Shown piece by piece: positions 3,867 through 62,551 of a DNA stretch of 64,000 nt. Where the stretch lies: NCBI GenBank assembly GCA_030612725.1, contig JAUWNJ010000011.1:14996-78995 (forward strand). Direction: 5' to 3'. Below the pieces are notes generated by a model, which worked only from the letters and a program-made list of their open reading frames with translations, was not told where the DNA came from and did not search any database. The DNA is from Planctomycetales bacterium (lineage in GTDB: Bacteria; Planctomycetota; Phycisphaerae; SM23-33). Numbering within the stretch: position 1 is the first letter of the stretch; each line of letters starts with the position of its first letter. The translations under genes were made by a program, and so were the position numbers.

Positions 3867-5072
3867 CTATGTCCCCCGGACGCCGAAAACTTCCTGCAAC
3901 TCTTTAACAGGACTCATCTTACGACGTCTTCGGACCACCTCAACGACGCGTTCGGATGCATAATCAACCTCGTCAGTCGTATTGAAACGACCAAGACTGA
4001 AGCGGATCGAACTATGAGCCATCGCTTCCGGTACGCCCATCGCCATGAGCACGTGGCTGGATTCCAGGGATTCGCTCGAACAGGCAGAACCGGTGGACAC
4101 CGCCAATTCGTTCGCCAAACTAAGTACCACACTTTCGCCCTCAACGTAGGCGAAGCTGAGATTGACGGTATTAGGTAACCTCTCGGTTGGGTGCCCGTTA
4201 AGTGCGACATCGTTCAAGCCGTTCAATATCTCTTCCTGCAACCGGTCGCGCAGTGTGGCGATCCGTCCGGATTCCTTCAGCATTTCACTCCCTGCGATGT
4301 CGCAGGCGGTCCCCATGCCGACAATCCCCGGCACGTTCAGCGTTCCGCTTCGTTTGCCCCTCTCGTGCCCGCCGCCGTGCATCTGGATCGCCAAACGTAC
4401 TCGAGGCCCATGCCTGCGGACATACAGACCACCTATGCCCTTCGGGCCGTACATCTTGTGGGCCGAGATGCTCATAAGATCAATTCCCATCGTCTCCACA
4501 TTTACAGGCATCTTCCCTGCCGCCTGGGTGGCGTCGCTGTGAAAGATTACACCGTGATTCTTGGCCACCTTGCCGATTTCGGCAACCGGATGGAGCGCGC
4601 CGGTTTCGTTATTCGCCGCCATAAGGGAAATCAGGATTGTTCTGTCGGTTATGGCGCCTTCGACCTGCTCGGCCGTTACTCGCCCATATTCGTCGGGTTT
4701 CAGCCAGGTTATCCGGCAACCCTTCGTTTCGAGGTACTTGCACGTATCAATGACGGCCTTGTGCTCTGTCATGCAAGTGATGATGTGATTGCCTTTCTCG
4801 CGATACATCTCCGCAACGCCTTTGATGGCAAGGTTGTCGCTTTCCGTGGCTCCGGATGTAAAGATGATTTCCTCGGACTTCGCACCGATCAGGTCGGCAA
4901 CCTGACAACGGGCCTTCTCCACGGCCGCTTCAGCACGCCGACCAAAAACGTGAAACTTGCTGGCAGCGTTGCCGAAGTCGGCGCCGAGGTAGGGCATCAT
5001 CGCCTCCAGTACCCGTTTGTCCAGCGGCGTCGTTGCATTGTTGTCAAAGTAAATCGGCAAATTAACAGTCAT
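3867..5072 (-). CDS. iscS: cysteine desulfurase (NifS/IscS class I)
   Basis: 401 aa. The PLP lysine is in SAHKMYGPKGIGGLY and the catalytic loop is STGSACSS. It sits directly upstream of the scaffold gene. Confidence 0.9.
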   Translation of the reverse strand: MTVNLPIYFDNNATTPLDKRVLEAMMPYLGADFGNAASKFHVFGRRAEAAVEKARCQVADLIGAKSEEIIFTSGATESDNLAIKGVAEMYREKGNHIITCMTEHKAVIDTCKYLETKGCRITWLKPDEYGRVTAEQVEGAITDRTILISLMAANNETGALHPVAEIGKVAKNHGVIFHSDATQAAGKMPVNVETMGIDLMSISAHKMYGPKGIGGLYVRRHGPRVRLAIQMHGGGHERGKRSGTLNVPGIVGMGTACDIAGSEMLKESGRIATLRDRLQEEILNGLNDVALNGHPTERLPNTVNLSFAYVEGESVVLSLANELAVSTGSACSSESLESSHVLMAMGVPEAMAHSSIRFSLGRFNTTDEVDYASERVVEVVRRRRKMSPVKELQEVFGVRGT

Positions 5073-12700: not shown

Positions 12701-15700
12701 TCTGGGGGGTGCTGTCCGATTCGTAAAGATAGGACGTGGCGTTCCAGTTCAGCACGGGAACATTGGCCGTCACGAAGACGTAGAAAAGCCCGGTCAGTCC
12801 CTGCGGCAGGATGAACGCGTGCGACGTTGTTTTCGAGCCGCTCGCAGCAATTGCCCCCACCTGGGAGGCCACCCCGAGGTATATATCGGTTTGCTTATCA
12901 AATACGGCATCTCGGGAGAGGTACACCGCGTCCATCCAGTATTTGTCGGCTTCAACAGCGCCGGCGCCGATATTGCGGAGGGTCCACGCGAGCGTCACAG
13001 ACTGCCCGGCGATTGCGCCGACCGGAACCGAAATGTCTTCGACAATAAGGTCCGGGACAGGGGTAAAGTGAATTGTGGTCGCCTGGGCGGCGGTTGTGGT
13101 GTTGTTGCTCTCGGACGGGACCTCTATGACACTGCCCGTCCACGCCGTCTTCCAGGGTGAGTCGGTCATCACGCGCACGTAGTATTCGCCGCTTATCCAT
13201 CGGGGCAGCGTGAAGACGGCATTGCTGGTATAAGTTTCTCCGACACCCAGCGACCGGGCAGAGGGCACGATTTCCAGGAACAAGGTATCGCCGGGATCGT
13301 TGACATTGATCAGGCCGACGGCGTCGCTCCACCCGATCCAGCCTGTCCCCGCCGGGCCTGTATTCTGAACGGTCCATTGCACATTCAGTTCCTGACCGGA
13401 CCAAACCACCGCGTCGGCGATCACGTTCGTCGTCACCAGGTCAGGCGTCTGAAGCGTCAGCGTCAAAGGCACGGCGTCAACATTGTTGGCCTCGCGGTCG
13501 TCTTCAAAGACCCGGTCATCGGCATCGGCCACCGCAATCAGGTAGTAATCGCCCGGCAATACCCAGGGCCACTGCGGCATCTCGACCTGAACCATGTCCG
13601 TGTATGACTGCCCCGCGTTGAGCAAGCCCGAGCGATTGAACTCGCCGACCAACGTGTCGTCGAGAGACCATTGATCGTCTGCCGAAAGGTAGAACTCCTC
13701 CAACCAGGCAGTTCTGACCGTGTCTGTCTCGCCGACGTTCGTAACCGTTATACGCACCCAGGTCGTCTGATCAATGCCCGCTACGATGGCCCCACCGGAA
13801 AGCGAAAGCGACAGGTCCGCCGCGGCAAAGGTGACGTCAATAGGCTGGCCGGACACGAGGACGTTGTTATCCTCGTCGAGTTCGCCGATCCGGTTGGACG
13901 CGTCCAGCCGGACGATCACGTAATAAGCGCCTTCTGCGTCCTCGGGCAGCGTCGCCGAAACGACCGACGTCCGCACAGCATCGATGCCGAGTCCGCCCCG
14001 GTGTATCCGCTCGCCGACTTTGACGTCCATCACATCCCACAATGCATCCCGCGAAAGATAGATCTCGTCGGTCCAGGTCGGTATGACGGTGTCGGCTGTG
14101 CCGCGGTTCGCCGTTCGGTAAGTCGCCTCAATACGATGTCCGGAAATCGCCTCGCTCGGCACAACGAAGCCGTCGCCTTCCAGGTCCGGCGCGAGAAGAT
14201 ATATGACGACCGTCTCGGTCGAGGCCGTCAGGTTGTTGGTCTCGGCAGCACGCTCATAGACGGCCCCGGGCGTCTTGTTGGCCATGAGTTCGTCGAGCAC
14301 CCACATGTCGGTGGCGACCAACACGTAATAGTCGCCATGCATCTCGGGCGGCACCACAAACGATGCGGTTGCCTCGTAGGTTTCACCGGCCGCGAGGAAG
14401 CCCTCGTGCCACGTCAGGCCCAGCCGGATATCATCGTCCGACAATTCCGTGTCGATCGAGAGATAGACGCCGTCAATCCATTCGTCTGAACCCGTCACAG
14501 CGACGCCCATGTTGCTTACCTGCCAGGTCACCGTTATCGTCTGTGTCGAGAACGCGACCGGCGGCGGTGTCACGGAGACCACCTGGAGATCGGGGGAGGG
14601 TGCGGGCTGAATCACGAAAGGACCACCGGCGGCGAAGTTGTCCGAGTCGTATTCATACTCCCAGACCTGGTGGTATATGTCGGTAACCACCAGGATGTGA
14701 TACGTCCCCTCCACGTCTTCGGGCAGCGTAAAGAGCAATGAACTGACATGACTGTCCCCGGTATCGAGATACGACACGTTCGCTACCAAGCCAAGGTAGA
14801 TGTCCTCGTTTTCACCCGTGTCGAGTTGATCGTCCTGGCTGAGCCAGACTTCGTCGTACCATCGTGCCGCGTTCGTCGAGCCTGTGCCCGCATTCGTAAC
14901 CGTCCAGGTCACCTCGATGGTCTGGCCCGAAAGCGGCGCCGCCGGAACCGTGATGTCCGAAACCTGCAGGTTCGGATACGAGCACAGCAGCACCTCAACC
15001 AGTCCCGCCGAGAGGACATTGTTGTCGTTATCCGTCTCTACAATGCTGTTGCCGCTGTCGGTCTTTACCAACAGGTAATAAGACCCCTGCTCTTCGATGG
15101 GAATGTCTAGCGTCTGGATCCGCGTGACCGATTCGCCCGGCGCCAGCGAAGCACCCGAGTAGGCAAACCCTTCCGAAATCGTGTTACCGAGCGAGCCGAT
15201 GTCATCATCTTCAGACAGCACAACCTGGTCGGTCCAGTAACCCGGGGCTTCGGCCTCGCCTGTGTTTGTCACCGTCCAGGTTACCTGCAACGGCTGACCG
15301 GAGATCACCTGTTCGGCAACGATTACCTCCGTCACGACTAGGTCTGCGCGCGGCGGATAGGCCACTTCCAGCGGCACCGCCACGATGTTGTTCGTCTCGT
15401 CTGATTCGGCCAGGCGGAAGATTTCATTGGGCTGCAGCAAAGGACAATCGACGCTGAAGAGAAGCCACCCTGCTCCCAGCGTTTCACTCGGCAGATTGAC
15501 CGTGCGATTGAAGGTGTAACTCTCTCCTTCAGCCAATAAAGGTAACGATGACACGTATCTTTTAGAGGCCACACTGCGGTCTGTCGCATCCAGCACTTCA
15601 TCCGACGACCAGTAAACGCGATCGGTCCATTCAGGCACGGCCAGGCCTTCGCCGATGTTCTCGACGGTCCAGGAGAGATCAACTGATTCGCCCGGTTCAG

Positions 15701-16964
15701 CCGTTGCCGGAGACGACGTGCCCGTCACAACCAGGTCCGGTTTCGTGATGGCCAGGGCAATGACGACCACGTTGTTGTCGTCGTTAAGTTCCGTGAGATT
15801 GTAGGTCGCGTCCGTAACCAGAATGAGAAAGCTGGAATTCGAGTCGTCCTGGGGAAGGCGGATATGGGCATTAACTACGTACTGTCCGCCGACCGCCAGG
15901 CCGACCGACTCGTTGTGCGTTACCAAGGCCAACTCCGAGTCGCTGTATCGATCCCAGATGTCATCGGTGGAGTAGTAAACACGGTCATACCAGGTTGTGC
16001 CCGACGGCACCGGCAGGTCCCCGGCGTTTTCGACAACAAATGACAGGTCGAACTCGAGACGGGGTGAGAGGGTTTGGGGGATACCTGACCACGAATCGAC
16101 AATCAGGTCGGGTCCGGCGATGTCAATCGTCACGGTGGAAGCGTTGTTCGTCGCGTCGATTTCAGGAAGCCGGGCACCGCCGTCAGCAGTGACGATGAGA
16201 TAGTAATTGCCCTCCGACTCCGGAACGGCGTTCAGCGTCACCGTCTTCGAACCGATGTAGGACGCCCCTTCGGCCAGGGCAACCTTCCGGTATGCGCTGC
16301 CAAGTGAGACGTCTTCGGCATTCAGCGTCGCGTCTCCAGACAGGTACAGGTAGTCGTACCAGGAGGTGTCACCTTCGATTTCTCCGGGGCCTTGGTTCTG
16401 GACTGTCCAGGAGACGGTGATTGATTCGCCCAGGCTGGCTGAAACAGGGGCGGTGATGTCCGTAACGACCAGGTCGCCGCTGCCTACGATGAAGGGCACG
16501 GCGAGCACATTGTTGTCGCGGGCCGAATCGACGTAGCTGTAGACGTCCGCAAGGGCAAGCAGGTAGTAGGAACCGGGCTCGACGCTGGAGGGAATGCGGA
16601 ACGATTCATTAACGGTATAAGACTCGCCGGGGTTCAGTGGATCATCGCGATCGGGTCCTGCACCGATCCACCGGTCCACGCCGTAGCCGTCCCAGACGGC
16701 GTCGGTCGAGAGAAACACCTCGTCCCACCAGTACGCTTCGCTATCGGTGGGCTCATCGCCGATGTTCTCAACCGTCCAATCGACACTGACATAGTTGCCC
16801 GGTGCACAGTGGCCCGGACTGGAGATATTAACCACCGCCAGATCGGCACTGAGCATGAGCCGTGGCTCCAGTGCCTCCATCACGGCCGGCGATCCCACGG
16901 CTACATTTCGCCCGCGCTCGACGCTGCACTCTCGTGAGTTCGTCCTGTGATGCGTTTCTGCCAT
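6747..16964 (-). CDS. giant (3405 aa) secreted multidomain protein with CARDB-like repeats, PPC and IPT-like domains, an HEXXH metalloprotease-like region, and two C-terminal Ig-like plus dockerin-type modules
   Basis: The N-terminus carries LEPRLMLSA. About 12 repeats of ~115-125 aa each start with (P/A)DL.V and contain W.V.N.G and Y.V.V.D..N...E..E.NN, which is CARDB-like. HEYGH is encoded at 9765-9779 (about aa 2396). PPC-like segments are present (DTFTFSL...GDLDLVV). There is a DPNDILGPAGYG...YTIRFEN module. Two dockerin-like EF-hand pairs are present (DVDGDRDVDRSD / DYDGNGLVDDID and GDWNGDLDVDFTD / DYDGDGDVDIFD). Confidence 0.85.
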   Translation of the reverse strand: MAETHHRTNSRECSVERGRNVAVGSPAVMEALEPRLMLSADLAVVNISSPGHCAPGNYVSVDWTVENIGDEPTDSEAYWWDEVFLSTDAVWDGYGVDRWIGAGPDRDDPLNPGESYTVNESFRIPSSVEPGSYYLLALADVYSYVDSARDNNVLAVPFIVGSGDLVVTDITAPVSASLGESITVSWTVQNQGPGEIEGDTSWYDYLYLSGDATLNAEDVSLGSAYRKVALAEGASYIGSKTVTLNAVPESEGNYYLIVTADGGARLPEIDATNNASTVTIDIAGPDLIVDSWSGIPQTLSPRLEFDLSFVVENAGDLPVPSGTTWYDRVYYSTDDIWDRYSDSELALVTHNESVGLAVGGQYVVNAHIRLPQDDSNSSFLILVTDATYNLTELNDDNNVVVIALAITKPDLVVTGTSSPATAEPGESVDLSWTVENIGEGLAVPEWTDRVYWSSDEVLDATDRSVASKRYVSSLPLLAEGESYTFNRTVNLPSETLGAGWLLFSVDCPLLQPNEIFRLAESDETNNIVAVPLEVAYPPRADLVVTEVIVAEQVISGQPLQVTWTVTNTGEAEAPGYWTDQVVLSEDDDIGSLGNTISEGFAYSGASLAPGESVTRIQTLDIPIEEQGSYYLLVKTDSGNSIVETDNDNNVLSAGLVEVLLCSYPNLQVSDITVPAAPLSGQTIEVTWTVTNAGTGSTNAARWYDEVWLSQDDQLDTGENEDIYLGLVANVSYLDTGDSHVSSLLFTLPEDVEGTYHILVVTDIYHQVWEYEYDSDNFAAGGPFVIQPAPSPDLQVVSVTPPPVAFSTQTITVTWQVSNMGVAVTGSDEWIDGVYLSIDTELSDDDIRLGLTWHEGFLAAGETYEATASFVVPPEMHGDYYVLVATDMWVLDELMANKTPGAVYERAAETNNLTASTETVVIYLLAPDLEGDGFVVPSEAISGHRIEATYRTANRGTADTVIPTWTDEIYLSRDALWDVMDVKVGERIHRGGLGIDAVRTSVVSATLPEDAEGAYYVIVRLDASNRIGELDEDNNVLVSGQPIDVTFAAADLSLSLSGGAIVAGIDQTTWVRITVTNVGETDTVRTAWLEEFYLSADDQWSLDDTLVGEFNRSGLLNAGQSYTDMVQVEMPQWPWVLPGDYYLIAVADADDRVFEDDREANNVDAVPLTLTLQTPDLVTTNVIADAVVWSGQELNVQWTVQNTGPAGTGWIGWSDAVGLINVNDPGDTLFLEIVPSARSLGVGETYTSNAVFTLPRWISGEYYVRVMTDSPWKTAWTGSVIEVPSESNNTTTAAQATTIHFTPVPDLIVEDISVPVGAIAGQSVTLAWTLRNIGAGAVEADKYWMDAVYLSRDAVFDKQTDIYLGVASQVGAIAASGSKTTSHAFILPQGLTGLFYVFVTANVPVLNWNATSYLYESDSTPQSNRAVSTRTVLIRLAEPCDLVAGTIDIPANAFPGQSISLTYSVGNLGPNDAIGLWHDSLYLSADDTWDIGDVFVGRVEHVGTVAAGENYSETFIDVLPPVAPGSYKVIVRSDILNALPETDESNNAAASLLAVEIDCEALPLNGAVSGVLSAGEFVCYRVDATAGETVRLALDAADDSAMFEVYVAFERMPTRGDFDYLHGEPYQADQSVTIPTTMGGTYYVMVRAESAPADCAFDLSADVLAFDVTAVTPGSVGNAGSATVELGGAQFDPAMTCELIGSDGDPLAASAVHFQDAATVFATFDLEGRAIGAYDVRVTAPDGTSALLIGGLTVVEGQGAKLDVGLGVPFAVLVCPFSMRVEYANTGDADMLVPLLAMTGPAEAQLGLTLGATAGVGQLQLLGYSPSGPVNILRPGQREQIIVHCAKMEEGYYSFSVEGYTVGGDDAVIDWDALGRRYQPPYASDAEVWMANWRVFEAVAGETWSEVLLGLIDRLVESPFVGDQPNILVADIMSDLFAKSLGGGGGLTDTTPPYVIDHDIIADETGVQAVDLIFSEAINPADFPLDQVVLTGPSALSIEPLVITRVVDRLYRVSFPIQTETGEYRMVLGAGIRDRAGLTLDQNGNGLGGEATDGCAVTFVMETDGSVSTGPLTTALVAPAETGEAEGGSTTVVEGEPDASDASGSAGHIDGSDDESPTPITYEDPPELMEDNPAMTFTREALLADARVGEVNVSGTVHYTLDSKTPELSDRAAQVRIELWEQDGQRDYDPGEVTDQCDDLVAVINDETGSIYASLDGTFTYINDLQGLPLLNLDYDEVDPTNPTAPALAKYYIVIRAANPYAFGVQCPRVDRPNTTWVSLYPEGEPVGLTETDDRWADLLSAWSHTSPLLACDVSDGTIQLLRADSITIIPADMPLFISIESIRIAADWFLQHTGFERRPIAVIHIEHSNPDYGCHTRTDVIQLAHDARYCPQTAIHEYGHAMQVALAGYRDISYGGYKSDGTFTSGPYGLITESKSEEGTYTNTAFAEGWAVFFASAVTEGWQYEQNPGSTGSHERVDYNRSSQFLDTNDFWMGADAYGYQTSPSERIFNSSNLSASFNKDGVNDNASTGDLVLGGIASIFWDIYRNLGALYQLRIAMQGAPALTSSLMALYNAWPGAKRALDVIFIDHGVSVTDDAYGTCGGLGMLTETRRIDGLIMSCDGANEHDTFTFSLPAISWGEPKTYTSTISINFDKTYGDLDLVVEKRDGNGNIEIQKDVVKGGSVARVRLSGLKSNESYAITVKVYGHGAFGYGDGFGGDFHPDYALVISPNLPTWLETEDPNYPPGDGPQPGGSDEKKVWVTEPWDPNDILGPAGYGPLNWLAADSTMEYTIRFENYATATAAARQVVVTQQLDEDLDWRSFRVGDFGFGATWVSVEADRTFYSGRIDATDAIGVYVDAYVALDIHTGQVTFSLTAIDPTTGQMTMDPALGLLLPEDGTGCGQGFFTYSIRPKDDVVTGTVIDAKATITFDTQPPIDTPEISHTLDADKPSASVELVDDVAITTAFTASWSAADAPGGSGLAAVDVYVSDNGGSWEMWQQQATFSAAPFIGESGHTYSFCTIASDNAGNIEQESFIAEDKIDVWDAGIPPTVESVTVNDGSIQRSMVWDIKLLFDQPVFLDAGALSLISEAGTPVGTLTTNPSGDQRTYLITFTDPAVIGGSLPDGWYRMSARSAKVTNLGELPMTEDNIFEFFRLFGDVDGDRDVDRSDYIQIRGTLNKSDGQAGFNSAFDYDGNGLVDDIDVGEIRSRLNTWLDEPAFPEPTTTQAQTLATSVAEPQIESVMVNDGAAQRSMVSSLTVTFDQAVQTSPAAFVLTRSDGLTVDLSVSNPSGDGRTFVLTFDGPGIVGGSLADGLYSLTVCRNLLIDLGGNSLTGEDDTFSFHRFYGDWNGDLDVDFTDVMGLIRTYGSRSGLRTYDIAFDYDGDGDVDIFDVMPMIYNYRKTLT

Positions 16965-17671: not shown

Positions 17672-17797
17672 GGTTGTCGTCAGTGGGATATCGGTCCCCA
17701 TTGAAAAAAAATAGTCTTGACGCAACCATCTATATGACAAAGAGTTAACCTAATAATGGTAGGGTGTCCGAGTGGCCGAAGGATCCGGTCTTGAAAA
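17672..17797 (+). repeat. 126-bp direct repeat, copy 1 (upstream region plus 5' half of tRNA-Ser)
   Basis: It aligns with 30333-30458 at about 85-90% identity by eye, with 1-2 single-base indels. Similarity stops exactly after cttgaaaa, the anticodon loop. Confidence 0.85.
17758..17797 (+). pseudogene. truncated tRNA-Ser(UGA): 5' 40 nt only (acceptor 5' strand, D arm, anticodon stem 5' strand and loop)
   Basis: ggtagggtgtccgagtggccgaaggatccggtcttgaaaa matches the intact gene at 30419-30458 with one D-loop mismatch. The sequence then diverges, with no variable arm, T arm or acceptor 3' strand. Confidence 0.8.
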
Positions 17798-30332: not shown

Positions 30333-30458
30333 GGTTGTCGTCCAGTGGCAATATCGGTCCCCATTGAAAAAATGTCCTTGACGCAACTATCTATGTGAAA
30401 AAGACTTAATCTGATAATGGTAGGGTGTCCGAGTGGCTGAAGGATCCGGTCTTGAAAA
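30333..30458 (+). repeat. 126-bp direct repeat, copy 2 (upstream region plus 5' half of the intact tRNA-Ser)
   Basis: See 17672-17797. This copy continues into a complete tRNA. Confidence 0.85.
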
Positions 30459-30505
30459 CCGGTGTGGGCGCAAGTCCACCGTGGGTTCGAATCCCACCCC
30501 TACCG
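30419..30505 (+). tRNA. tRNA-Ser (anticodon UGA), class II with a long variable arm
   Basis: Folded by hand: acceptor GGTAGGG/CCCTACC, D stem TCC/GGA, anticodon stem CCGGT/ACCGG with loop CTTGAAA, a 6-bp variable arm (GTGGGC-GCAA-GTCCAC), and T arm GTGGG-TTCGAAT-CCCAC. CCA is not encoded. Confidence 0.95.
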
Positions 30506-30610
30506 TTTTTTTGCGGAGGTTTCCGCCTCCGTCAGACCAGCGAGGCCGGGACGAAATTCCGCTTCATATCTGATTTGCCGAAATAATAATTACCTCGTCG
30601 GCGTGAAGTG

Positions 30611-47710: not shown

Positions 47711-47741
47711 ATATGCTCTCCTCACCCTTTACTTTTGCGTT

Positions 47742-47763
47742 CGCGTTTGCGCGCGCAAACGCG
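47742..47763. repeat. 22-bp perfect palindrome cgcgtttgcgcgcgcaaacgcg (copy 1)
   Basis: Read directly. It lies 32 nt upstream of the portal ATG. The same 22-mer recurs at 47851-47872. Confidence 0.9.
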
Positions 47764-47847
47764 CACAAAAAAACCATCGGGGCGGCATAAGTCCTTGGGG
47801 CCCAACGAAATTATTTTTTTACTTTTTTTGTTCCCCCTGATTTTTAC

Positions 47848-47875
47848 GTTCGCGTTTGCGCGCGCAAACGCGAAC
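47848..47875. repeat. 28-bp perfect palindrome gttcgcgtttgcgcgcgcaaacgcgaac (copy 2, extended)
   Basis: Read directly. Its centre is about 109 bp from the centre of copy 1. Confidence 0.9.
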
Positions 47876-47965
47876 ACAATGCAGTTAAGGTGGCGTGCCC
47901 CCCGAAAACTGTACCAGTTGAAATGGGAGATTTTTCGAGAGAAAAAGGTGATCAATCGGAGTTGT

Positions 47966-50712: not shown

Positions 50713-50745
50713 AAAGCCGACGGATATCTATCCGTCGGTTTTTGT
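50713..50745 (+). terminator. hairpin plus T-run between convergent purB and murD (shared palindromic element)
   Basis: aaagccgacggata-tc-tatccgtcggt followed by ttttgtt. The murD stop codon sits in the loop. The 26-nt core aaagccgacggatatctatccgtcgg is identical to that at 54612-54637. Confidence 0.6.
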
Positions 50746-54611: not shown

Positions 54612-54641
54612 AAAGCCGACGGATATCTATCCGTCGGCTTT
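54612..54641 (-). terminator. perfect 14-bp-arm palindrome downstream of folC (shared element)
   Basis: aaagccgacggata-tc-tatccgtcggcttt, 32 nt after the folC stop. A/T runs on both flanks. Confidence 0.6.
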
Positions 54642-54672: not shown

Positions 54673-56061
54673 TTATTTCTCAAGTAGTTTTTTTGCTTCG
54701 CCGACGAGGTAGAAACTTCCCGTTATGCAGATGATGTCTCCGCGAGTAACGGCGTTGTTGGCGATGCGGACGGCTTCGGCGAGTGTGGGTGCTATTTGTG
54801 CGGGTTTTCCTGATCGCTCTTCATATCGTTGAGCCAGGTCGGCGGGGTCGGCGGCGCGCGGGTTGTCGCTTGCGGTGAAGATGACTTTGTCGGCTCCACG
54901 CATCAACTGACCGAGCATTCCGGGAATTTCCTTGTCGCCGGCACATCCGAAAATTACCACCATTGAGTCGTAGTGGATATATTGCCCGACGGACCGCATC
55001 AGCGCCTCCATCGAAGCGCCGTTATGAGCGCCATCGACGAGGATTCGCGGGTTTTCCCTGATCAGTTCCATCCTGCCCGGAAGAGAGACTCTGGAAAGCC
55101 CTTCAATGGCGGCGGCATCGTCGATATCAAAACCATGGTCCTTTAGTTGATCCAGCAGCGCAAGGGCAAGTCCGCAATTCAACGCCTGGTGCTCGCCCAT
55201 CAACGGGACGGGAAGGTGCTCGAACTTGCTGCGAGATGTGGTCAGGCAGACTCGCGTCTGCGGACCGGTCTCACGCGACGACTCGAAACGATAACTGAAG
55301 TCGATATTCTTTCCTGTAATCAGCAGCGGCGTATCGACCTTCTTGGCCGCCTTTACCAGAACTGCTTCAGCGGCGGGAACCTGACGGACCGACACTGCCG
55401 GTACGCCACGCTTGAGTATCCCCGCCTTTTCACCGGCAATGGCTTCAACCGTGTCGCCAAGCTGGTGAATGTGATCCAGGGAGATGTTGGTGAATCCGAC
55501 CACCATCGGTTTGACGACGTTGGTACTGTCAAGCCGGCCACCGAGACCTGTCTCAAGAACGGCTACGTCGATCTCCTCGTCCACGAAATACATAAAGGCG
55601 ATGGCAGTGAATATCTCGAAGAAAGTCGGCTTGTCGTCGCCCATCTGTTTGACGTGCGGAGCCACTTTGTTGATGTATCGCGTCAGGGCGGCGCGTGTGA
55701 TGAGTTCGCCGTTTATCTGTATCCGCTCGCGGATGTCCATCAGGTGCGGTGAGGTGTAAAGCCCGACCTTGTGCCCGCAGGAATGGAGCATCGCCGAGAG
55801 CATTGTCGCGGTGGAACCTTTGCCTTTTGTCCCTGCGATATGGACGCTGCGCAACTTCTTATGCGGATCGCCAAGACGCTTCAGGAGCGACCTCATACGA
55901 ACCAGGCTGAAGGTGTCGCTGTTGTAACGAACCCGAAGCATTCGCTCGTAGTCCGTCTGCGCAAAAAGATACCTCAATGCCGCGTCGTAAGTGCGAATCG
56001 GCAGCCTGAGAGCTCGCCCTGACTTTCCAGGGGATGTTTTTGGGGAAATCGACGTTGCCAT
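54673..56061 (-). CDS. folC: bifunctional folylpolyglutamate synthase / dihydrofolate synthase
   Basis: About 462 aa from ATG 56061 (MATSISPK). P-loop HIAGTKGKGST. Mur-ligase-type middle and C-terminal domains. Confidence 0.85.
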   Translation of the reverse strand: MATSISPKTSPGKSGRALRLPIRTYDAALRYLFAQTDYERMLRVRYNSDTFSLVRMRSLLKRLGDPHKKLRSVHIAGTKGKGSTATMLSAMLHSCGHKVGLYTSPHLMDIRERIQINGELITRAALTRYINKVAPHVKQMGDDKPTFFEIFTAIAFMYFVDEEIDVAVLETGLGGRLDSTNVVKPMVVGFTNISLDHIHQLGDTVEAIAGEKAGILKRGVPAVSVRQVPAAEAVLVKAAKKVDTPLLITGKNIDFSYRFESSRETGPQTRVCLTTSRSKFEHLPVPLMGEHQALNCGLALALLDQLKDHGFDIDDAAAIEGLSRVSLPGRMELIRENPRILVDGAHNGASMEALMRSVGQYIHYDSMVVIFGCAGDKEIPGMLGQLMRGADKVIFTASDNPRAADPADLAQRYEERSGKPAQIAPTLAEAVRIANNAVTRGDIICITGSFYLVGEAKKLLEK

Positions 56062-56240
56062 AACTCCCAGAATATACCACACAGTGATTGTATTTGTCAA
56101 GGGATTCCGCCCGTAAGCGGTAAAAATACATAAAATTTCGCTGATTCCGGGCATGATAAAAATCGTAAGTCCCGTATCCCCAAATCTTTGTCTCTTGATA
56201 CCGATGCGGGACGGATATGCAGGGGGAAATACGTCTTTAT

Positions 56241-56280
56241 TTTAAAAACCAAGCCCACGGAGCGCAGGCCGCGGGCTTGG
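56241..56280 (-). terminator. intrinsic terminator after the PEP-CTERM gene at 56325
   Basis: On the minus strand: ccaagcccgcgg...ccgtgggcttgg (12-bp stem, one mismatch) followed by TTTTTAAAAT. Confidence 0.7.
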
Positions 56281-56324
56281 GGATACTCCTACTCTTTCAA
56301 CCAATCAACCAGTCAACTAATTTA

Positions 56325-57092
56325 CTATTTCCGGCGTCGTCTCATCAGCACGCCGATTCCGCCCAGAATCAGCAGACTCATCGTTCCCGGTTCGGGAGTG
56401 ATTACGAACGCCATGTCCAGCGACATTTCGGGAAATTCCGGGTCACGCAGTTCAACCCAGCCGCCTTCGCCCGTACCATACAGGTCCGGATGCCAAAAGA
56501 CCGCATCGTCGTTCCAGTGATCCTGTGATGTCTTCCAGCCGATCGGCGGATTTTGATCCTCTATCATATCCACACGAATGTCGAGCCAGTAGATAGTGCC
56601 CTCTTGCTGGGTATAGGCTTCCGATTCGGGGATAAGCACGTTAATCTGGAAGAACTGCTGGTGATCGGGACGCTGCCAGAAATCATCTATCGGACAGTAC
56701 CATCCCTGGTCGCCGAAATCGGGGTCCCGCCACCGGAAATTCAGGGTGTCATATCTCCAAAGTTCTTCTCCGGGCATACTGTAACCGCTTGTGCTTTCTT
56801 CCTTCGGTATGTCTTTGTGAAGGCTTAAATGGAGATTGGTTATCTCTGGCCACAATACGTCGTCGCTTCTCCATGAAGCCCAGAAATGGACGTCGAGAAT
56901 CGGACCGGTCTGCGTACACATGAAATCGTCCGCAATTGTCTGGTGCACGAGGCAGACGTCCCAGCCGTCCGGGTCGGGAAGCTGTGGGTAGTGCATCTTG
57001 TGCCCGTCGTCCCAATCCCAGTCTGCCGTCGCCGGTGCGGCTACAAACGCCAGTACAGCAATAAGCATCAGTGTTTTTGTCGCAGTTTTCAT
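56325..57092 (-). CDS. PEP-CTERM sorting-domain secreted protein
   Basis: 255 aa from ATG 57092 (MKTATKTLMLIAVLAFVAAPATA). C-terminal TPEPGTMSLLILGGIGVLMRRRRK. Confidence 0.85.
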   Translation of the reverse strand: MKTATKTLMLIAVLAFVAAPATADWDWDDGHKMHYPQLPDPDGWDVCLVHQTIADDFMCTQTGPILDVHFWASWRSDDVLWPEITNLHLSLHKDIPKEESTSGYSMPGEELWRYDTLNFRWRDPDFGDQGWYCPIDDFWQRPDHQQFFQINVLIPESEAYTQQEGTIYWLDIRVDMIEDQNPPIGWKTSQDHWNDDAVFWHPDLYGTGEGGWVELRDPEFPEMSLDMAFVITPEPGTMSLLILGGIGVLMRRRRK

Positions 57093-57174
57093 TTTTTCGC
57101 TCCTTTTCTGAATTCCCACATTCCAATTAACCAAACCAATAACTATCCAAACGAACGATTTGTATTAACTTCTG

Positions 57175-57822
57175 TTATTTTTTCCTGCGGACGAGCAGGG
57201 CGATGCCGCCCAGAACCAGAAGGCTCATCGTCGCCGGTTCGGGAACCGCAATGATGCTGCCCGTCGAGGGAGGCCAGCCGCCGCTCCTGCCGGCAATACC
57301 CAGGCTATCGAAGGGCGTAGGTGAGCCGCCCATCTGATTGAAGAAATCCTGAATGATGAACTCCCACGTTTCGTTGGCCTGGAAGATGTTGTCCACTATC
57401 ATGCTCTCGAAGACCAAGGGTTTATTGATTCCGATGTTGTCGATCACGAAGGCGAATTGTGCGTCTGACGTCCCCATGTTGCCGATCCTCCCGTCGAAGT
57501 TGCTAATAATGGTTTCCGGATCAGCAACATAATGAACATCATACCAATCAACCCTGGTAAGGTTGGTCATGGTTACCAGCACGTTGAGTATGGCCGGGTC
57601 GTCGTTGCCGTCCCAGCACGCCGTATCTTCCGTGGGACGATCGAATGATTCGATCAATTCGTTGAGCGGGAACCCGTCGCCCAACTCGTGTACCGGACCT
57701 TCGATGAACAACGGATCCTGAGGGCCGTCCTGACTGTACACATCCACAGGGTTCGCCATCGCCGGTGCGGCTACAAACGCCAGTACAGCAATAAGCATCA
57801 GTGTTTTTGTTGCAGTTTTCAT
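57175..57822 (-). CDS. PEP-CTERM sorting-domain secreted protein
   Basis: 215 aa. Its signal peptide is identical to the neighbour's apart from one residue. C-terminal VPEPATMSLLVLGGIALLVRRKK. Confidence 0.85.
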   Translation of the reverse strand: MKTATKTLMLIAVLAFVAAPAMANPVDVYSQDGPQDPLFIEGPVHELGDGFPLNELIESFDRPTEDTACWDGNDDPAILNVLVTMTNLTRVDWYDVHYVADPETIISNFDGRIGNMGTSDAQFAFVIDNIGINKPLVFESMIVDNIFQANETWEFIIQDFFNQMGGSPTPFDSLGIAGRSGGWPPSTGSIIAVPEPATMSLLVLGGIALLVRRKK

Positions 57823-57908
57823 TTTTTTGCTCCTTTTCTGAATTGTTTCCCTGTTCGCTAACTGTTTCCAAATTCCGATAAATCGACTTTTTATAACTTC
57901 ACCTCTCT

Positions 57909-58046
57909 TTATCTTTTCCGGCGGAGGATTAAGCCGGCAGAATCAGGCAGTGTCAGCGCGAACGGTTCGGGAACATTTGCAGCCTAATCGCTGTGCAATC
58001 AGAACAAGTCTGGGACATTCCCCTGTTTCTTGCGGTGAACGGCCAT
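57909..58046 (-). pseudogene. collapsed PEP-CTERM gene remnant
   Basis: The minus strand reads ATG-MAVHRKKQGNVPDLF*-LHSD*-AANVPEPFALTLPDSAGLILRRKR*. The start context is shared with the gene at 61049. There are two in-frame stops and then an intact-looking PEP-CTERM tag. Confidence 0.6.
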
Positions 58047-58431
58047 TTTTCCTTTTGTCTCTGTTGTCTCCTTTGGGTTTCACGGGGTGCTTTCGGCGGG
58101 CTATGATCTCCGTCGTCGCACTGGTTTAATGCGTTTGTCCTGTCGGGGATTGAGCGGTTTCACTGATGAGCGGGCGTTTATCTCCGCCTAGACCACTTAG
58201 CCTGCCGACACGAAAAATCTATTCTCCGATGTTTCTCGGCAAATGCCCAAGGCAAGCAAATAAGCACTCCTTGCAAGACGTGGGAACCCGGCTTGACGGC
58301 CTGAGCAGGCCCGAACCCAGCGAGACCCGCATCCTGTTCCAATTTGAGACAAACGAATTTCGTTGCTTTCTGAATGATAGCCTGAGAATTGGAGCGATAA
58401 TTAAGTATACCGCGTTTTGGGGTTTTGTCAA
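58044..58431 (-). promoter_or_regulatory. conserved promoter plus ~350-nt leader element, copy A
   Basis: On the minus strand: TTGACA (58426-58431), N16, TATACT (58404-58409), followed by a leader that aligns in blocks with 61047-61402. Confidence 0.65.
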
Positions 58432-58480
58432 GGAAAAAACGGTAGAAAGGAGACCCTGCCCGTTGTGCTCACGGTATAAC

Positions 58481-58517
58481 CTATTGTCCGGTGTCCCTTT
58501 AGGACACCGGACAATAG
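58481..58517. terminator. 16-bp perfect-stem hairpin between the two PEP-CTERM operons
   Basis: ctattgtccggtgtcc-cttta-ggacaccggacaatag, 48 nt after the stop at 58565. There is no T-run, so it may be a terminator or insulator, or a protein-binding site. Confidence 0.4.
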
Positions 58518-58564
58518 TGAAAACCAAACCTGCCCCACAAGTGCAGGGTAGGATTGTTTGCAAC

Positions 58565-59197
58565 TTATTTCCGGCGTCGCTTTATCAGCGCGCCGATTCC
58601 GCCAAGAACCAGCAGGCTCATCGTCGCCGGTTCGGGGATGCACTCGTGAGTGATGCACCCGTCGAGAACGAAGTTGAATCCTCGAATATCGACCGATATC
58701 CATTCCGGATTGTAGTCCGGAATGATAATCGAGTCGATGATACAAATCGGATCGCCAGAGAGCTCTCCTACGAAGATTGACGGGTCTGCGCGCATGATCC
58801 ACTCGTTTTCCAGTTCGAGCGGCAGGCCATCCGGAAGAGGCGGCTCGCCGGGGTTAGGCGGATAAAACGGCGTTGACCAATTATACGTAACCTCGGCCCA
58901 GCTATCCAGCGCCAAATCGAGCGGTGCAATGGTGAAGGCAATATCAATCTTTTTCCATCGTGTCGGGTCATAGGGATGGTCGTAGAACCACACGTTCCAC
59001 CAATCGGTATTTTCGTAGTAATACCATTCGCCTCCATTGAAACCGCTGCCGCCACCGCCGATAACGCCATTCTCGCCGACCTCAACCCAGAAGGTGTCAG
59101 TGATCGGTCCATCAGGCTGGGCAACTGCTGCATCAGCGGTAATCAGCAACAGACCGAAGGCCGCCATGATTACTAAAATTCTCATTTCACTCCTCAT
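58565..59197 (-). CDS. PEP-CTERM sorting-domain secreted protein
   Basis: 210 aa from ATG 59197 (RBS aaaggag 7 nt upstream); the ORF extends to 59215. Signal peptide MRILVIMAAFGLLLITADAAVA. C-terminal IPEPATMSLLVLGGIGALIKRRRK. Confidence 0.85.
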   Translation of the reverse strand: MRSEMRILVIMAAFGLLLITADAAVAQPDGPITDTFWVEVGENGVIGGGGSGFNGGEWYYYENTDWWNVWFYDHPYDPTRWKKIDIAFTIAPLDLALDSWAEVTYNWSTPFYPPNPGEPPLPDGLPLELENEWIMRADPSIFVGELSGDPICIIDSIIIPDYNPEWISVDIRGFNFVLDGCITHECIPEPATMSLLVLGGIGALIKRRRK

Positions 59198-59276
59198 CTT
59201 CTTACTCCTTTCCATTTGTACAGAACCTCTCTTGGGCCCGCTACGAGCGGACTCATTTCGTGTGCCGTTAATATTT

Positions 59277-59981
59277 TTATTTCTTCCTGCGTCGCAGAAT
59301 CACGCCGATCCCACCCAATACCAGCAGGCTCATCGTCGCCGGTTCGGGAATGCACTCGGTATCAACGACGATCTGGTCGATTACCGTGCAGTACGGAACT
59401 TCAATTATGATTTGCTCCGATTCCGGGTTCGGGCGAATCGTCAGGCCGTAGTTGTAGGTGTACCACGAACTACCGGGAAACGGCGGCGCGGGGGTACCTT
59501 CTTGGGCACTGGGCCTGCCGGTTGGAAACGTTCCGGGCACGTACTCGCTTGCGCCGCCGGAACCCGTTACCGTAACGCCCGTAGGCTGCTTGGAGGAGGT
59601 GATCTGGAGGAAGATACGCTTGTACTCATTTGGTTCTTCGTTGTTCGCGATTGTCAGCACAATTTTTCCGCCTTCCGGACTGGTACAGTGCCAACCGCTG
59701 CACACGCCGCTACCGCTTCCTTCCGGGTCTCCTATTCCCGGAGGGCACGGCCAGCCGTCCGACCATTCCCATCCGCCGGTGGGGAATTCAGCAGAAGGAT
59801 CGCCGAAGGGGTTCGTAAATTCCTCGGGGTAAGATGGCAACTGTTCCGTGCTGAATTCCCAGTGCGCGAACGTGCTGTAATCGGCGGTGCGGTCCCACCC
59901 GTCAAGCGGACCGTAGTCCCTTGCCAAGGCTGGGGTGGCCAGTAACGCCAAAACCGCCAGAAGCATTAGTGTCTTTTTCAT
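59277..59981 (-). CDS. PEP-CTERM sorting-domain secreted protein
   Basis: 234 aa. Signal peptide MKKTLMLLAVLALLATPALA. C-terminal IPEPATMSLLVLGGIGVILRRRKK. Confidence 0.85.
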   Translation of the reverse strand: MKKTLMLLAVLALLATPALARDYGPLDGWDRTADYSTFAHWEFSTEQLPSYPEEFTNPFGDPSAEFPTGGWEWSDGWPCPPGIGDPEGSGSGVCSGWHCTSPEGGKIVLTIANNEEPNEYKRIFLQITSSKQPTGVTVTGSGGASEYVPGTFPTGRPSAQEGTPAPPFPGSSWYTYNYGLTIRPNPESEQIIIEVPYCTVIDQIVVDTECIPEPATMSLLVLGGIGVILRRRKK

Positions 59982-60071
59982 TTTCCGTACTCCTGTCTGT
60001 TTCTATTTTTTCCAGCGTAACTTTACCAGATCCGCAACGAGCGGCCTGTGCCATGCCGGATTCTTCAATGT

Positions 60072-61049
60072 TCACTTTTTTTTTCTGCGGATGAGCAGGC
60101 CTATTCCGCCCATAACCAGCAGGCTCATTGTTGCCGGTTCGGGGACGTCGTGTACGTAATCATTTTGCCACCAGTGAAAGTCCACCGGGACGCGCACATA
60201 TTGCCCTGTGGAGCCCCAGCCGTCCTGACAGATGAAATACTCGTCGCCATTATAGACAGCCGGAGTTAAATCGTAATATCCGACGCCGACGACCGAGTGC
60301 GACTCGCCCGTAAGCCAGGCGTACTCTTCGATTGTTGCTCCGGGAAATGTTGCGTTGTCCCACGGCAGGATCGGTATAGTCGTATCCACCCAATTGACGA
60401 AGGTGCATTCAACCGGACGCCCGGCGTCGATCTCGGCGGTGTACGTGGGCCACATGGCGGCCAGGGGCGTACCCTGTGGATCTGTTGTTACATTGACATT
60501 CGGATAGGCGACCTTGACGATACCGGTGCCGGGTGCCGGAACGGGCAGGGGATAACTGTTATCAACCCACGCTCCCGTGGCATATCCAATCAGTCCCACG
60601 GCGATCATAGGCAACTGGGTACCGCTGGTGTTGGGTGGAAACGGGATGGGGGGGCCAAGACCCTGCCAACCGCCCGTATTCATGTGCCAACCCATCTCGA
60701 TTTGACCGTCGTTGAACAGACCCTGCTGCCACGTGCCTGGGGTGGCAGGATAGCCCGGGCCGGCCGATTCAACCTGCCGGTCGGTTAGTCCTGTGCAACC
60801 TTTGACATCTTCCCAATAGCCCATGATGTTCCCACCGGCTGTCGGACTGCACCAGCCCGGATAGCCGGCGACCCCATAGGCAGAAGGCTGATTCCAGTCC
60901 GGCACATTGGAGATTAAGGCGTCCGCTGACGCATTCGGGACAGACCACGCCAGAAGAATACCAACAACCATAATTGTCGCAATTCGCTTGCGTTTCATTG
61001 TCATTCTCCTACTTGCAAAATATTCTTGTTTCTCACAGAAAAGATTCAT
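60072..61049 (-). CDS. PEP-CTERM sorting-domain secreted protein with a possible papain-like (C39/BtrH-like) cysteine peptidase domain
   Basis: The signal peptide MKRKRIATIMVVGILLAWSVPNASA starts at the Met at 60998 (RBS aggaga). The ORF ATG at 61049 coincides with the end of the conserved leader. VPDWNQP...GWCSPTAGGNIMGYW and SHSVVGVGY look like Cys and His catalytic motifs. C-terminal VPEPATMSLLVMGGIGLLIRRKKK. Confidence 0.8.
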   Translation of the reverse strand: MNLFCEKQEYFASRRMTMKRKRIATIMVVGILLAWSVPNASADALISNVPDWNQPSAYGVAGYPGWCSPTAGGNIMGYWEDVKGCTGLTDRQVESAGPGYPATPGTWQQGLFNDGQIEMGWHMNTGGWQGLGPPIPFPPNTSGTQLPMIAVGLIGYATGAWVDNSYPLPVPAPGTGIVKVAYPNVNVTTDPQGTPLAAMWPTYTAEIDAGRPVECTFVNWVDTTIPILPWDNATFPGATIEEYAWLTGESHSVVGVGYYDLTPAVYNGDEYFICQDGWGSTGQYVRVPVDFHWWQNDYVHDVPEPATMSLLVMGGIGLLIRRKKK

Positions 61050-61402
61050 TTTCCCTTTTGTCTTCTCTACGCTCTATAGGGTGCTTTCGGCGAGCTGCCA
61101 TCGCACCGGTTTAACGTTTTTGCCCTGTCGATGGACGAGGTGGCCTTGGAACAACGAGCGGGCATTTATTCCTGCCCAAGTCACTCCGCTTACCGACACG
61201 AAAAAAACCATTTTCCAGTACCTTTCGACAAAAGCCTGAATAGGCAAAAACACACTCCGTAAGACGTGGGAACTAGGCCAAGAGGCCTGAGCAGGCTTGA
61301 ATGAGCGAGATTCGCTCCTGCTCATATGAGATGAATAGCTCCGCCGCTCCCTGAGCGAGCTAGAGCAACAATTAAGTATATCACACTTTGGGGTTTTGTC
61401 AA
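61047..61402 (-). promoter_or_regulatory. conserved promoter plus ~320-nt leader element, copy B
   Basis: On the minus strand: TTGACA (61397-61402), N16, TATACT (61375-61380). The leader aligns with copy A and ends in caaaagggaaaATG. Confidence 0.65.
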
Positions 61403-61435
61403 GGAAAAAACGCGGGAAAATGGGGAGGATTTGCC

Positions 61436-62551
61436 TTACCGTCCCAGGCGGGCGAGGATTTTCAGACCTTCTGCGAGTTTTTCGTTGCTGGTGGCGTAGG
61501 AGAGGCGGAAATGCGTATCCCGTTCGGAAAAGACGTTTCCGGGGATAATCAGAACGTTATTTTCAATTGCCCGTTCAACGAACTCGCTGCTGGTCATTCC
61601 CTTGGGCGCGGGTACGAATGCGTAGAACGCTCCGCCCGGTTTTATCAGGCCAAAGGGTTCAGCCAGGGCTTCCTGGACCATATCGCGCTTGCGACGGTAT
61701 TCGGCGACCTGCTGCGACATGTCGCACGCCAGTGCCGCTGCACCGGCTGCCTGGGCCATACTGGGCGCGCAGACGAAACTGTACTGCTGGAGCATGGTCA
61801 TTTTTTCGATGATTTTGACGGGTCCCGTACACCATCCCATCCGCCACCCGGTCATCGCGTAACTTTTGGAGAATCCCCGCATCAGCAGCGTGTTTTCATA
61901 CACCGACGCCATTGAGGCAAAGGGCGTATCATAGCAGAAGAGATTGTATATCTCGTCGGAGACCACCAACAATCCCGCTTGCTCGGCGACCTCGGCGACG
62001 GCTCGCAGTTCGTCGGATGAATAGACCCGTCCGGTGGGATTTCCCGGCGAGTTGACGACCAGGAGGGTCGTGCGATCTGTAACGGCGTCGGATATTCTTT
62101 CGGGATCGGGTGTAAAGTCCGGATAGGTATCGACTATAACAGTCTTACCCCCGGCGAGGTGAACAAGGTGCTTGTACATTACGAAATACGGGTCGAGGAG
62201 GATGACTTCGTCGCCGGGGTTGATAAGTGTCATAAACGCCAGAAGCAGCGCGCCGGAGACGCCTGATGTAATCAGATAAGGTTTCTGATCGTCCCATCCG
62301 AACTCTTCGGCAGCCGCCGAAGCGACGGCGGCGCGGAGGTCGGGATCGCCTTGGGTCTGGGTGTACTTGTTGAAACCCCGCTCTATGGCGGCGATGGCTT
62401 CGACCTTGGCCGGCGCGGGCACGTCAAAGTCCGGCTGGCCTATGGAAAGGTTAATCGGGTCGGGCAACTTGGCGGCCAGATCGAAGACCTTGCGGATACC
62501 CGAAGCGTCCAGCAGTTTCATCCTCTCGGCAATATGACAGCGAGTGGGCAT
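61436..62551 (-). CDS. class I/II PLP-dependent aminotransferase (aspartate/aromatic type)
   Basis: 371 aa. PLP lysine in SFSKSYAMTGWRMGW, plus NPGNPTG-like NSPGNPTG. Confidence 0.85.
   Translation of the reverse strand: MPTRCHIAERMKLLDASGIRKVFDLAAKLPDPINLSIGQPDFDVPAPAKVEAIAAIERGFNKYTQTQGDPDLRAAVASAAAEEFGWDDQKPYLITSGVSGALLLAFMTLINPGDEVILLDPYFVMYKHLVHLAGGKTVIVDTYPDFTPDPERISDAVTDRTTLLVVNSPGNPTGRVYSSDELRAVAEVAEQAGLLVVSDEIYNLFCYDTPFASMASVYENTLLMRGFSKSYAMTGWRMGWCTGPVKIIEKMTMLQQYSFVCAPSMAQAAGAAALACDMSQQVAEYRRKRDMVQEALAEPFGLIKPGGAFYAFVPAPKGMTSSEFVERAIENNVLIIPGNVFSERDTHFRLSYATSNEKLAEGLKILARLGR

Follow-up and report, generated by a model that had tools for sequence, protein, structure and literature searches.

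Structured 5' leader RNAs upstream of PEP-CTERM genes in uncultured Phycisphaerae: a candidate cis-regulatory family

The leaders of ompA and of S-layer genes are understood as stabilising 5' untranslated regions (UTRs) of abundant envelope-protein mRNAs, and JUMPStart/ops-RfaH, EAR and LoaP-type elements are found in the leaders of polysaccharide and surface operons. To our knowledge, the control of PEP-CTERM/exosortase substrates is essentially uncharted outside Proteobacteria, and the sediment Phycisphaerae are uncultured. In Methylophaga, cyclic di-GMP (c-di-GMP) riboswitches precede clustered PEP-CTERM genes, and the strain Methylophaga nitratireducenticrescens GP59 carries four c-di-GMP-I (GEMM) riboswitches within 18 kb, before PEP-CTERM/VPLPA-CTERM genes (PMC12530212). 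Apart from these riboswitches, a full-text literature search turned up no RNA motif described for PEP-CTERM genes. Here we analyze a stretch of 64 000 nt from a Planctomycetales bacterium (contig JAUWNJ010000011.1; the whole stretch is called the window below), in which two copies of a promoter-plus-leader element, A (58441-58044) and B (61412-61047), stand on the minus strand in front of PEP-CTERM genes. In our best reading, which rests on comparative sequence analysis, a clade of uncultured Phycisphaerae/Planctomycetota from sediments carries a family of structured 5' leader RNAs not described before, to which the element belongs. Like the GEMM case in Methylophaga, it would be a cis RNA in the leaders of exosortase-substrate genes which is repeated before neighbouring operons and lies near exopolysaccharide genes, and we regard the Methylophaga riboswitches as its closest functional analogue. 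Unlike them, it shows no match to RF01051 or RF01786 at the thresholds tried, has another helix layout and occurs in another phylum.

A global alignment of the two copies contains 269 identical positions out of 383 (70%), and BLASTN of copy A against copy B gave E = 1e-23. Identical runs of 7-26 nt include CGTTTTTTCCTTGACAAAACCCCAAA, TATACTTAATT, GCCTGCTCAGGCC, GTTCCCACGTCTT, TTTTTCGTGTCGG and GCCCGCTC, and further runs are CGACAGG, TTAAACC, CGCCGAAAGCACCC and AGACAAAAGG. BLASTN, nhmmer and the covariance model detected no third copy in the 64-kb window. Both promoters read TTGACA-16 nt-TATACT with 11 of 12 matches to the sigma-70-like consensus, a score that was equalled only by the folC promoter when positions 56000-61600 were scanned. 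The promoter of copy B spans 61402-61375 (-35 box at 61402-61397, -10 box at 61380-61375) and has a T-tract directly upstream (to about 61412), and that of copy A spans 58431-58404 (58431-58426 and 58409-58404). The initial annotation, made from the letters of the window, had described two copies with near-identical promoters and conserved islands, and our alignment and scan recovered the same positions, runs and promoters.

An early doubt, namely that the two copies might be the only ones, was removed by the observation of the element in seven further loci of uncultured Phycisphaerae/Planctomycetota from sediment and cold-seep assemblies; the window sequence itself was traced by a sequencing-run look-up to cold-seep or sediment metagenomes. 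A covariance-model search, proposed in the initial annotation, was run on the window and the related loci, and the core copies scored 79-133 bits with our model R1. There are eight core copies (window A and B, L002, L014a, L014b, L010, L017 and L020), while L004 and L018 contribute the 3' part only, as contig ends cut the remainder. In 8 of 8 core copies a TTGACA/TATAAT-type promoter precedes the element, and 107-122 nt lie between the -10 box and the end of GUUCCC. The downstream gene encodes a PEP-CTERM protein everywhere but at L002, where it is cut off ahead of the C-terminus, and the PEP-CTERM genes belong to several unrelated families (C39-like, metallophosphatase, DUF7901 and others). 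The copy of L002, a 'Planctomycetales' metagenome-assembled genome, lies divergent from a polysaccharide-export (Wza-like) gene and an exosortase, whose homologues were not found in the window. L014 (also assembled as L015 and L016) is a close relative with the same aminotransferase...folC...M16 synteny and two copies: L014a ends after ~110-115 nt and heads a different PEP-CTERM gene, and L014b has full length and heads the C39-like gene. L010 is a full-length diverged copy from a genome of 63% GC, L020 is a short leader, again after the aminotransferase, that matches R1, and L017 (67% GC) combines the core with a short leader and heads a PEP-CTERM metallophosphatase.

These loci were reached by different routes. 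An exact-pattern scan for islands 1 and 2 in one genome per species gave three hits, of which one was true (L002); the other two, L001 and L003, were discarded as chance hits, since they lie inside high-GC coding sequence without flanking similarity. L014, L010, L020, L004 and L018 were reached via contigs carrying homologues of the first gene of operon B, and L017 by the second of two metagenome patterns, the first of which (islands 2 and 3) gave 0 hits, as did the viral-contig scan. Such exact patterns are strict and would miss both L014a and L014b, so that the scans underestimate the distribution. The Rfam scan suggested at the outset was also carried out with Rfam 15, and no family matched any copy: at the gathering threshold the window yielded only a tRNA, at E<=10 the region 57800-61500 yielded only chance hits to eukaryotic or viral families, and at E<=5 nothing was found on any leader of eight related loci. 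Membership in GEMM, prompted by the 10-mer ACAGGGCAAA in copies B and L002, was rejected, as the 10-mer is not conserved in three of the six long leaders (L014b, L010 and L018) and cmscan was negative.

Next, we examined which part of the element is conserved. The initial annotation had treated ~350 nt as one unit, and a long leader does recur, but the best-conserved core is confined to the ~110 nt that follow the promoter (61374-61260 in copy B, 58403-58274 in copy A), and this core also stands alone in the short leaders L014a, L017 and L020. Copy B scored 129 bits with R1 (E 3e-41) and copy A 85.8 bits, the second lowest value of the eight copies. The core opens with P1 (61366-61338 in B, including GGGAGCGGCGGAGC), a composite hairpin that is invariant in its 3' strand and loop, GGGAGCGGCGGAG. 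A semi-conserved linker leads to P2, a helix GAGCAGG/CCUGCUC of 7-8 bp (61323-61317 paired with 61295-61289 in B, 58339-58333 with 58309-58303 in A), which closes P2a (GRRN-CUCGCUC-NYYC, within 61317-61303 in B) with its invariant CUCGCUC loop. P3 (GGCC-N4-GGCC; 61288-61275 in B, 58302-58290 in A) is followed by an invariant single-stranded AGUUCCC tail, which in B lies in AGUUCCCAC (61274-61266) and in A in GGUUCCCAC (58288-58280). Some invariant segments are mutually complementary (GGGAGC with GUUCCC, CUCGCUC with GAGCG), so that a pseudoknot or alternative conformers are possible. The P1 region of copy A is degenerate relative to every other copy, with GAAAGCAACGAAAUU in place of GGGAGCGGCGGAGCU, and population variants of copy A in other runs read ...CGGAGUU, which is nearer to the consensus; both observations fit a relaxed constraint behind a dead first gene.

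For evaluation of the selection on the core we compared it with fourfold-degenerate sites of neighbouring genes. Core identity between copy B and L010, L017 and L020 is 66-73% in genomes spanning 53-67% GC. When the window is compared with L020, 41% (aminotransferase) and 34% (C39-like) of the fourfold-degenerate sites are identical versus 69% of the core, and when it is compared with L010 the values are 49% and 73%. Judged against these sites, the core is conserved above the neutral rate, which shows purifying selection. The substitutions that did occur largely preserve pairing: in the eight-sequence alignment A6, 96% of the cells in the core helices are standard pairs, and 11 of 24 pairs change on both sides compared to 4.1 +/- 1.6 in column shuffles (0/500). 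With the 3' partner slid along the sequence we observed 0-3 double-changed pairs. A MAFFT alignment of the core, which is independent of the model, gave 9 double-changed pairs versus 3.6, and omission of copy A left 8 versus 2.8 (0/2000). The least ambiguous compensations lie in P2 and P2a: at position 2 of P2 an A-U pair is replaced by G-C in L010 and L020, at position 7 a G-C pair is replaced by A-U in L020, and compensatory changes were found in three of the four pairs of P2a.

A similar signature was observed in the middle and 3' part of the six long leaders, where 87% of the cells are paired and 16 of 56 pairs are double-changed (7.1 +/- 2.1 in shuffles, 3-5 in slid controls). P5 and P7 each replace U-A by C-G in L010, and for the closing pair of P6 the forms G-C, A-U and U-A all occur. 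The compensatory hairpin named in the initial annotation proved to be real, with GGCG/CGCC in copy A, GGCA/UGCC in copy B and a third form, GGCU/AGCC, in L010; likewise, the GTGC...GCAC pairing is kept in both copies and is represented by GGCG...CGCC in L010. Many of the G-U pairs would be A-C on the opposite strand, and the fold thus belongs to the gene-sense strand. A protein-coding gene is excluded: the reading frames differ across GTTCCCACGTCTT and the most conserved block contains a 1-nt indel, GGA(T)GCG, so that there is no conserved open reading frame (ORF), in agreement with the earlier remark that the copies share none. Taken together, these comparisons point to a structured functional RNA, as judged from pairing that is kept through compensatory changes.

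The long leaders extend the core by about 150-250 nt, a part without counterpart in the short leaders L014a, L017 and L020. Alignment and RNAalifold of the six long leaders gave the order P4 (CACGUCUU...AAGAGUG), a CCGG hairpin, P5 (UCGG/CCGA), which is a long-range helix around P6, and P7 (GGYGC...GCRCC). In copy B this part covers 61268-61080, with P4 at 61268-61251, P5 at 61201-61193 paired with 61131-61124, P6 (GGCA-loop-UGCC) at 61177-61160 and P7 formed by GGUGC (61107-61103) and GCACC (61084-61080). In copy A (58282-58044) the corresponding positions are 58282-58265 for P4, 58213-58205 with 58146-58139 for P5, 58189-58173 for P6 (GGCG-loop-CGCC) and 58122-58118 with 58090-58086 for P7. 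The long leaders also carry AAGGAG-type purine repeats, a pseudo-start resembling a Shine–Dalgarno (SD) sequence with its start codon, and finally the true SD sequence.

The pseudo-start (AAGGGAAAAUG at 61059-61047 in B, AAGGAAAAAUG at 58056-58044 in A) had been taken for the translation start, the leader being thought to end at the aaaATG of the gene (61049 and 58046). This assignment had to be abandoned: relatives show ATA, ATC or a short stop-terminated frame at this place, and ~50 nt beyond the upstream ATG we found a conserved AGGAGA-N-ATG followed by signal-peptide codons. As the upstream ATG is replaced in relatives and the second SD, ATG and signal peptide are conserved, the first gene of operon B starts at 60998 (AGGAGA and ATG within 61010-60996). 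In A, L014b, L018 and L010, a frame of 7-16 codons starts with an AUG or GUG behind an SD-like AAGGA; in copy B the frame reads in frame into the first gene, and the codon is AUA in L002 and AUC in L004. In L018 (255-312) the stop of the short frame overlaps the real start (UGAUG), and L014 has a counterpart at 4820-4850. The pseudo-start may be a facultative upstream ORF (uORF) or a ribosome standby site. Attenuation by a leader peptide was rejected, as neither the start codon nor the peptides nor the stops are conserved.

We next looked for transcripts. The run look-up did not find the window sequence in any RNA run. Related leader contigs occur in a cold-seep metatranscriptome of the study from which L002 comes, at depths like those of the coding region: one covers the A-type middle region (58075-58247, ~92% identical, depth 7), another the B-type core (61261-61395, depth 3.2), and a further one joins the 3' end of the leader, the SD sequence and the signal peptide. 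In addition, an RNA-library contig of 180 nt (depth 7.6; metatranscriptome run X9, record 2) shares with the element just the 35 nt of the P1 hairpin (61333-61367), with 2 differences; its flanks are unrelated to the element and a TAAGAT box lies just upstream. P1 may also be an independent promoter-proximal module in other transcripts.

With a probability of roughly 55%, we interpret the element as a factor-binding cis-regulatory 5' leader that acts on mRNA stability or translation of PEP-CTERM (exosortase-substrate) genes. A strong sigma-70-type promoter of its own would drive the leader and the PEP-CTERM genes behind it. The folded core would be bound by a trans-acting factor (an RNA-binding protein or a small-molecule signal), through which several exosortase-substrate operons would be adjusted in parallel, at a step after transcription initiation. 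We infer a transcription start at the distal promoter, regulation in cis and a ligand or protein as partner. The unpaired CUCGCUC loop, GGGAGCGG and AGUUCCC are invariant at near-saturated synonymous divergence, which argues for specific recognition rather than for a generic protective hairpin. The initial annotation had proposed a structured regulatory RNA; the structure is supported by compensatory and strand-specific G-U changes, but neither a conserved terminator nor an SD-sequestering helix accompanies it.

Several observations weigh against a factor-binding leader. The terminator scan and the leader alignment revealed no conserved intrinsic terminator after the core; a U-rich run after P6 is weak and occurs in copy B only (none in copy A, L002, L010, L014b or L018). 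For this reason a classical riboswitch that attenuates transcription is not apparent, and control would most likely act via mRNA stability or translation instead of intrinsic termination. A conserved helix sequestering the SD sequence was not found in the leaders either, and predicted SD accessibility is ordinary: in partition-function folds the 22 nt ahead of the start are unpaired with a mean probability of 0.26-0.79, much as the whole leader is, although folds of such long RNAs are unreliable. The covariation stems from eight core sequences of few lineages, several of them close relatives. P3 and most loop and tail elements are invariant and hence uninformative on covariation, P1 can be paired in two registers with similar scores, the poorly alignable copy A supplies part of its apparent covariation, and alignment A6 was fitted to the model. 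Single-sequence folding is ordinary, with z-scores of -0.02 to -2.4. The metatranscriptome contig over the core extends 69 nt past the -35 box, which could reflect read-through, another start or DNA carry-over, and the contigs consequently do not fix the transcription start. Finally, distant C39-like PEP-CTERM orthologues of other Phycisphaerae (L005, L009, L011, L019, L022 and L023) have sigma-70-like promoters and leaders of ~185-390 nt which neither match the model nor align with each other, except L022 with L023. From these unrelated leaders it follows that the element is clade-restricted and dispensable for the gene family.

The alternative that survives best, although it is clearly less probable than a factor-binding leader, is a constitutive cassette: a non-sensing 5' UTR in which the 5' hairpins block 5'-end-dependent decay and the purine repeats boost translation. 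The promoter is near consensus, the structured core begins a few nt from the predicted 5' end, and the 3' part carries purine-rich AAGGAG repeats; the missing conserved terminator and SD-sequestering helix and the secreted surface proteins encoded downstream agree with this view as well. The comparison with the ompA and S-layer UTRs points in the same direction, as these also combine a long leader after a strong promoter and a hairpin near the 5' end with secreted surface proteins and no leader terminator. However, for a stabiliser the stem alone suffices, yet the unpaired CUCGCUC, GGGAGCGG and AGUUCCC are invariant across near-saturated genomes; these invariant loop and single-stranded sequences set the element apart from the ompA and S-layer UTRs and suggest specific recognition. 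The enrichment of GGA is also weak: we counted 5-15 GGA motifs per leader versus 3-12 expected from shuffles, never more than ~2.3 standard deviations above. As an enrichment of CsrA sites this excess is not significant; CAGGAUG occurs within P2 of some copies. Somewhat less probable still, and drawn from the analogy to Methylophaga, is the idea that the core is the aptamer of a new riboswitch class which would sense a lifestyle signal, e.g. a cyclic dinucleotide, and switch exosortase substrates.

A DNA-level operator, or an ops/JUMPStart-like site which recruits a NusG paralogue for processive antitermination, appears improbable to us. In favour of such a signal, every copy has the element immediately behind the promoter, surface and exopolysaccharide-related genes accompany it, the exosortase/Wza-like locus adjoins it in L002, and GCCTGCTCAGGC is palindromic. 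As in JUMPStart/ops, EAR and LoaP, a conserved element with a G-rich GGCGG motif occurs in long leaders of surface operons, and the invariant GGCGGAGC presumably resembles ops GGCGGTAG. However, the ops octamer itself is absent, the sequence reading GGCGGAGC, and the palindrome is not kept in L010 and L020 whereas the helices are. Moreover, pairing partners co-vary and the G-U pairs work only in sense-strand RNA; unlike in those systems, it is the RNA pairing that is conserved. With short lengths of 1.5-2.5 kb, the operons have little need for antitermination, and no NusG paralogue was seen, though none was looked for. Regarding the ops/JUMPStart consensus GGCGGTAGnnTG, the leaders read GGCGGAGCU, and all copies lack the T of GGCGGTAG. 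The weakest explanation, that the copies have no function and were left behind by segmental duplication, gene conversion or the shuffling of cassettes and that the islands merely reflect uneven decay or conversion tracts, can draw on the exchange of ends among PEP-CTERM genes, the differing gene order in L014 and the collapsed gene and degenerate P1 of copy A, but is very improbable given a core conserved well above fourfold sites (66-73% versus 34-49%) across 53-67% GC, which also disfavours the recent duplication with random decay considered in the initial annotation, and given pairing-preserving substitutions and a constant position relative to promoter and PEP-CTERM gene in all eight copies. 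Terminal inverted repeats common to both copies, as expected for a remnant of a miniature inverted-repeat transposable element or an insertion sequence, were not found.

In order to describe the genes behind the leaders we combined sequence reading with Pfam and NCBIfam, which gave hits for all three PEP-CTERM genes of operon B. The gene content was thus as annotated before, but the operon extends over 60998-58565 (minus strand, as all features of this paragraph) and not from 61049. Its genes are the C39-like gene 1 (60998-60072, weak Peptidase_C39_2 hit), gene 2 (59981-59277) and gene 3 (59197-58565). Behind gene 3 we read a terminator-like hairpin with a U-run, CCCUGC...GCAGG-UUUGGUUUU (58548-58520), and a perfect 16-bp hairpin (58517-58481, inverted repeat I1); a like pair of hairpins stands before copy b in L014. 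From the terminal hairpins of operon B we infer that copy A heads a separate transcription unit. As described in the initial annotation and seen again by sequence and Pfam, copy A heads a gene remnant and two PEP-CTERM genes (57822-56325). The collapsed first gene (58043-57909) consists of a degenerate SD/start remnant joined almost directly to a PEP-CTERM tail, VPEPFALTL...RRKR* (57974-57909, of which 57948-57974 belongs to repeat family D2). It is followed by a PEP-CTERM gene (57822-57175) and a PEP-CTERM gene with DUF7901 (57092-56325), both recognized by Pfam and each with its own SD sequence, and by an intrinsic terminator found in the terminator scan (56280-56244).

The latter two genes are otherwise unrelated but share 90 nt with 97% identity over the SD sequence and signal peptide (57025-57114 versus 57755-57844, family D4), and six genes have 3' PEP-CTERM tails with similar DNA sequences (family D1). 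The ends of the PEP-CTERM genes look homogenised, as gene conversion or an exchange of cassettes would leave them. The window (56325-62551) and L014 (1669-6626), whose aminotransferase genes are 93% identical at the nucleotide level, differ in the order of the genes behind the leaders: the C39-like gene stands behind the second leader in L014 and behind the first in the window. The leaders may serve as recombination points at which PEP-CTERM cassettes are swapped. Another PEP-CTERM gene of the window (48873-48172, minus strand), in which a cyclophilin-type peptidyl-prolyl isomerase domain was recognized by eye, has its own TTGACA...TATGAT promoter and a ~165-nt leader (region 49075-48172); the element was not found in this leader, in which a short stretch, CATCAGGCCTCTT, recalls P2/P3.

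Other repeats and hairpins were observed elsewhere in the window. A 92-nt direct repeat (17706-17797 versus 30367-30458, 89% identical) includes a TTGAC...box like that of a promoter as well as the 5' half of tRNA-Ser(TGA) (30418-30506), which is the only tRNA found by ARAGORN and Rfam; the repeat may be a truncated tRNA duplicate that marks the edge of an inserted 12.7-kb segment. A 30-nt palindromic hairpin resembling a bidirectional terminator, AAAGCCGACGGATATCTATCCGTCGG(C/T)TTT, occurs at 50713-50742 and 54612-54641 (97% identical, D17), and a very similar hairpin lies in L002 (6444-6473) just upstream of the leader promoter, such sharing across genomes being unusual. The GC-rich palindrome CGTTCGCGTTTGCGCGCGCAAACGCGAACG occurs twice with a distance of 109 nt (47725-47770 and 47834-47879, D14), upstream of a minus-strand gene starting near 47709, and the two sites look like paired operator sites. 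Repeat families D3, D6 and D13, with a spacing of ~369-381 nt (~123-127 amino acids), indicate that 13356-16806 probably encodes a large protein of tandem domain repeats.

The element is best filed as an orphan structured 5' leader motif. Like the orphan leader motifs of Weinberg et al. (2007, 2010, 2017; PMC1950547, PMC2864571, PMC5737381) it combines conservation and covariation upstream of a coherent gene set and is a candidate for a riboswitch or protein-binding RNA without a known ligand. Unlike those motifs it is known from about eight sequences of one clade and is not in Rfam 15; in the passages of these papers matched by full-text search (PMC1950547, PMC2864571, PMC5737381) PEP-CTERM is not mentioned. 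A shared RNA leader before unrelated PEP-CTERM genes defines a candidate post-initiation regulon for cell-surface remodelling, and the 110-nt core is a concrete RNA for ligand- and protein-binding assays. The leaders also seem to behave as portable cassettes of promoter and leader (and signal peptide); the gene bodies behind them have apparently been swapped or deleted, which bears on the diversification of surface proteins. Even if the element were only a stabilising UTR, it would still offer a small module for strong expression in a phylum that is hard to work with.

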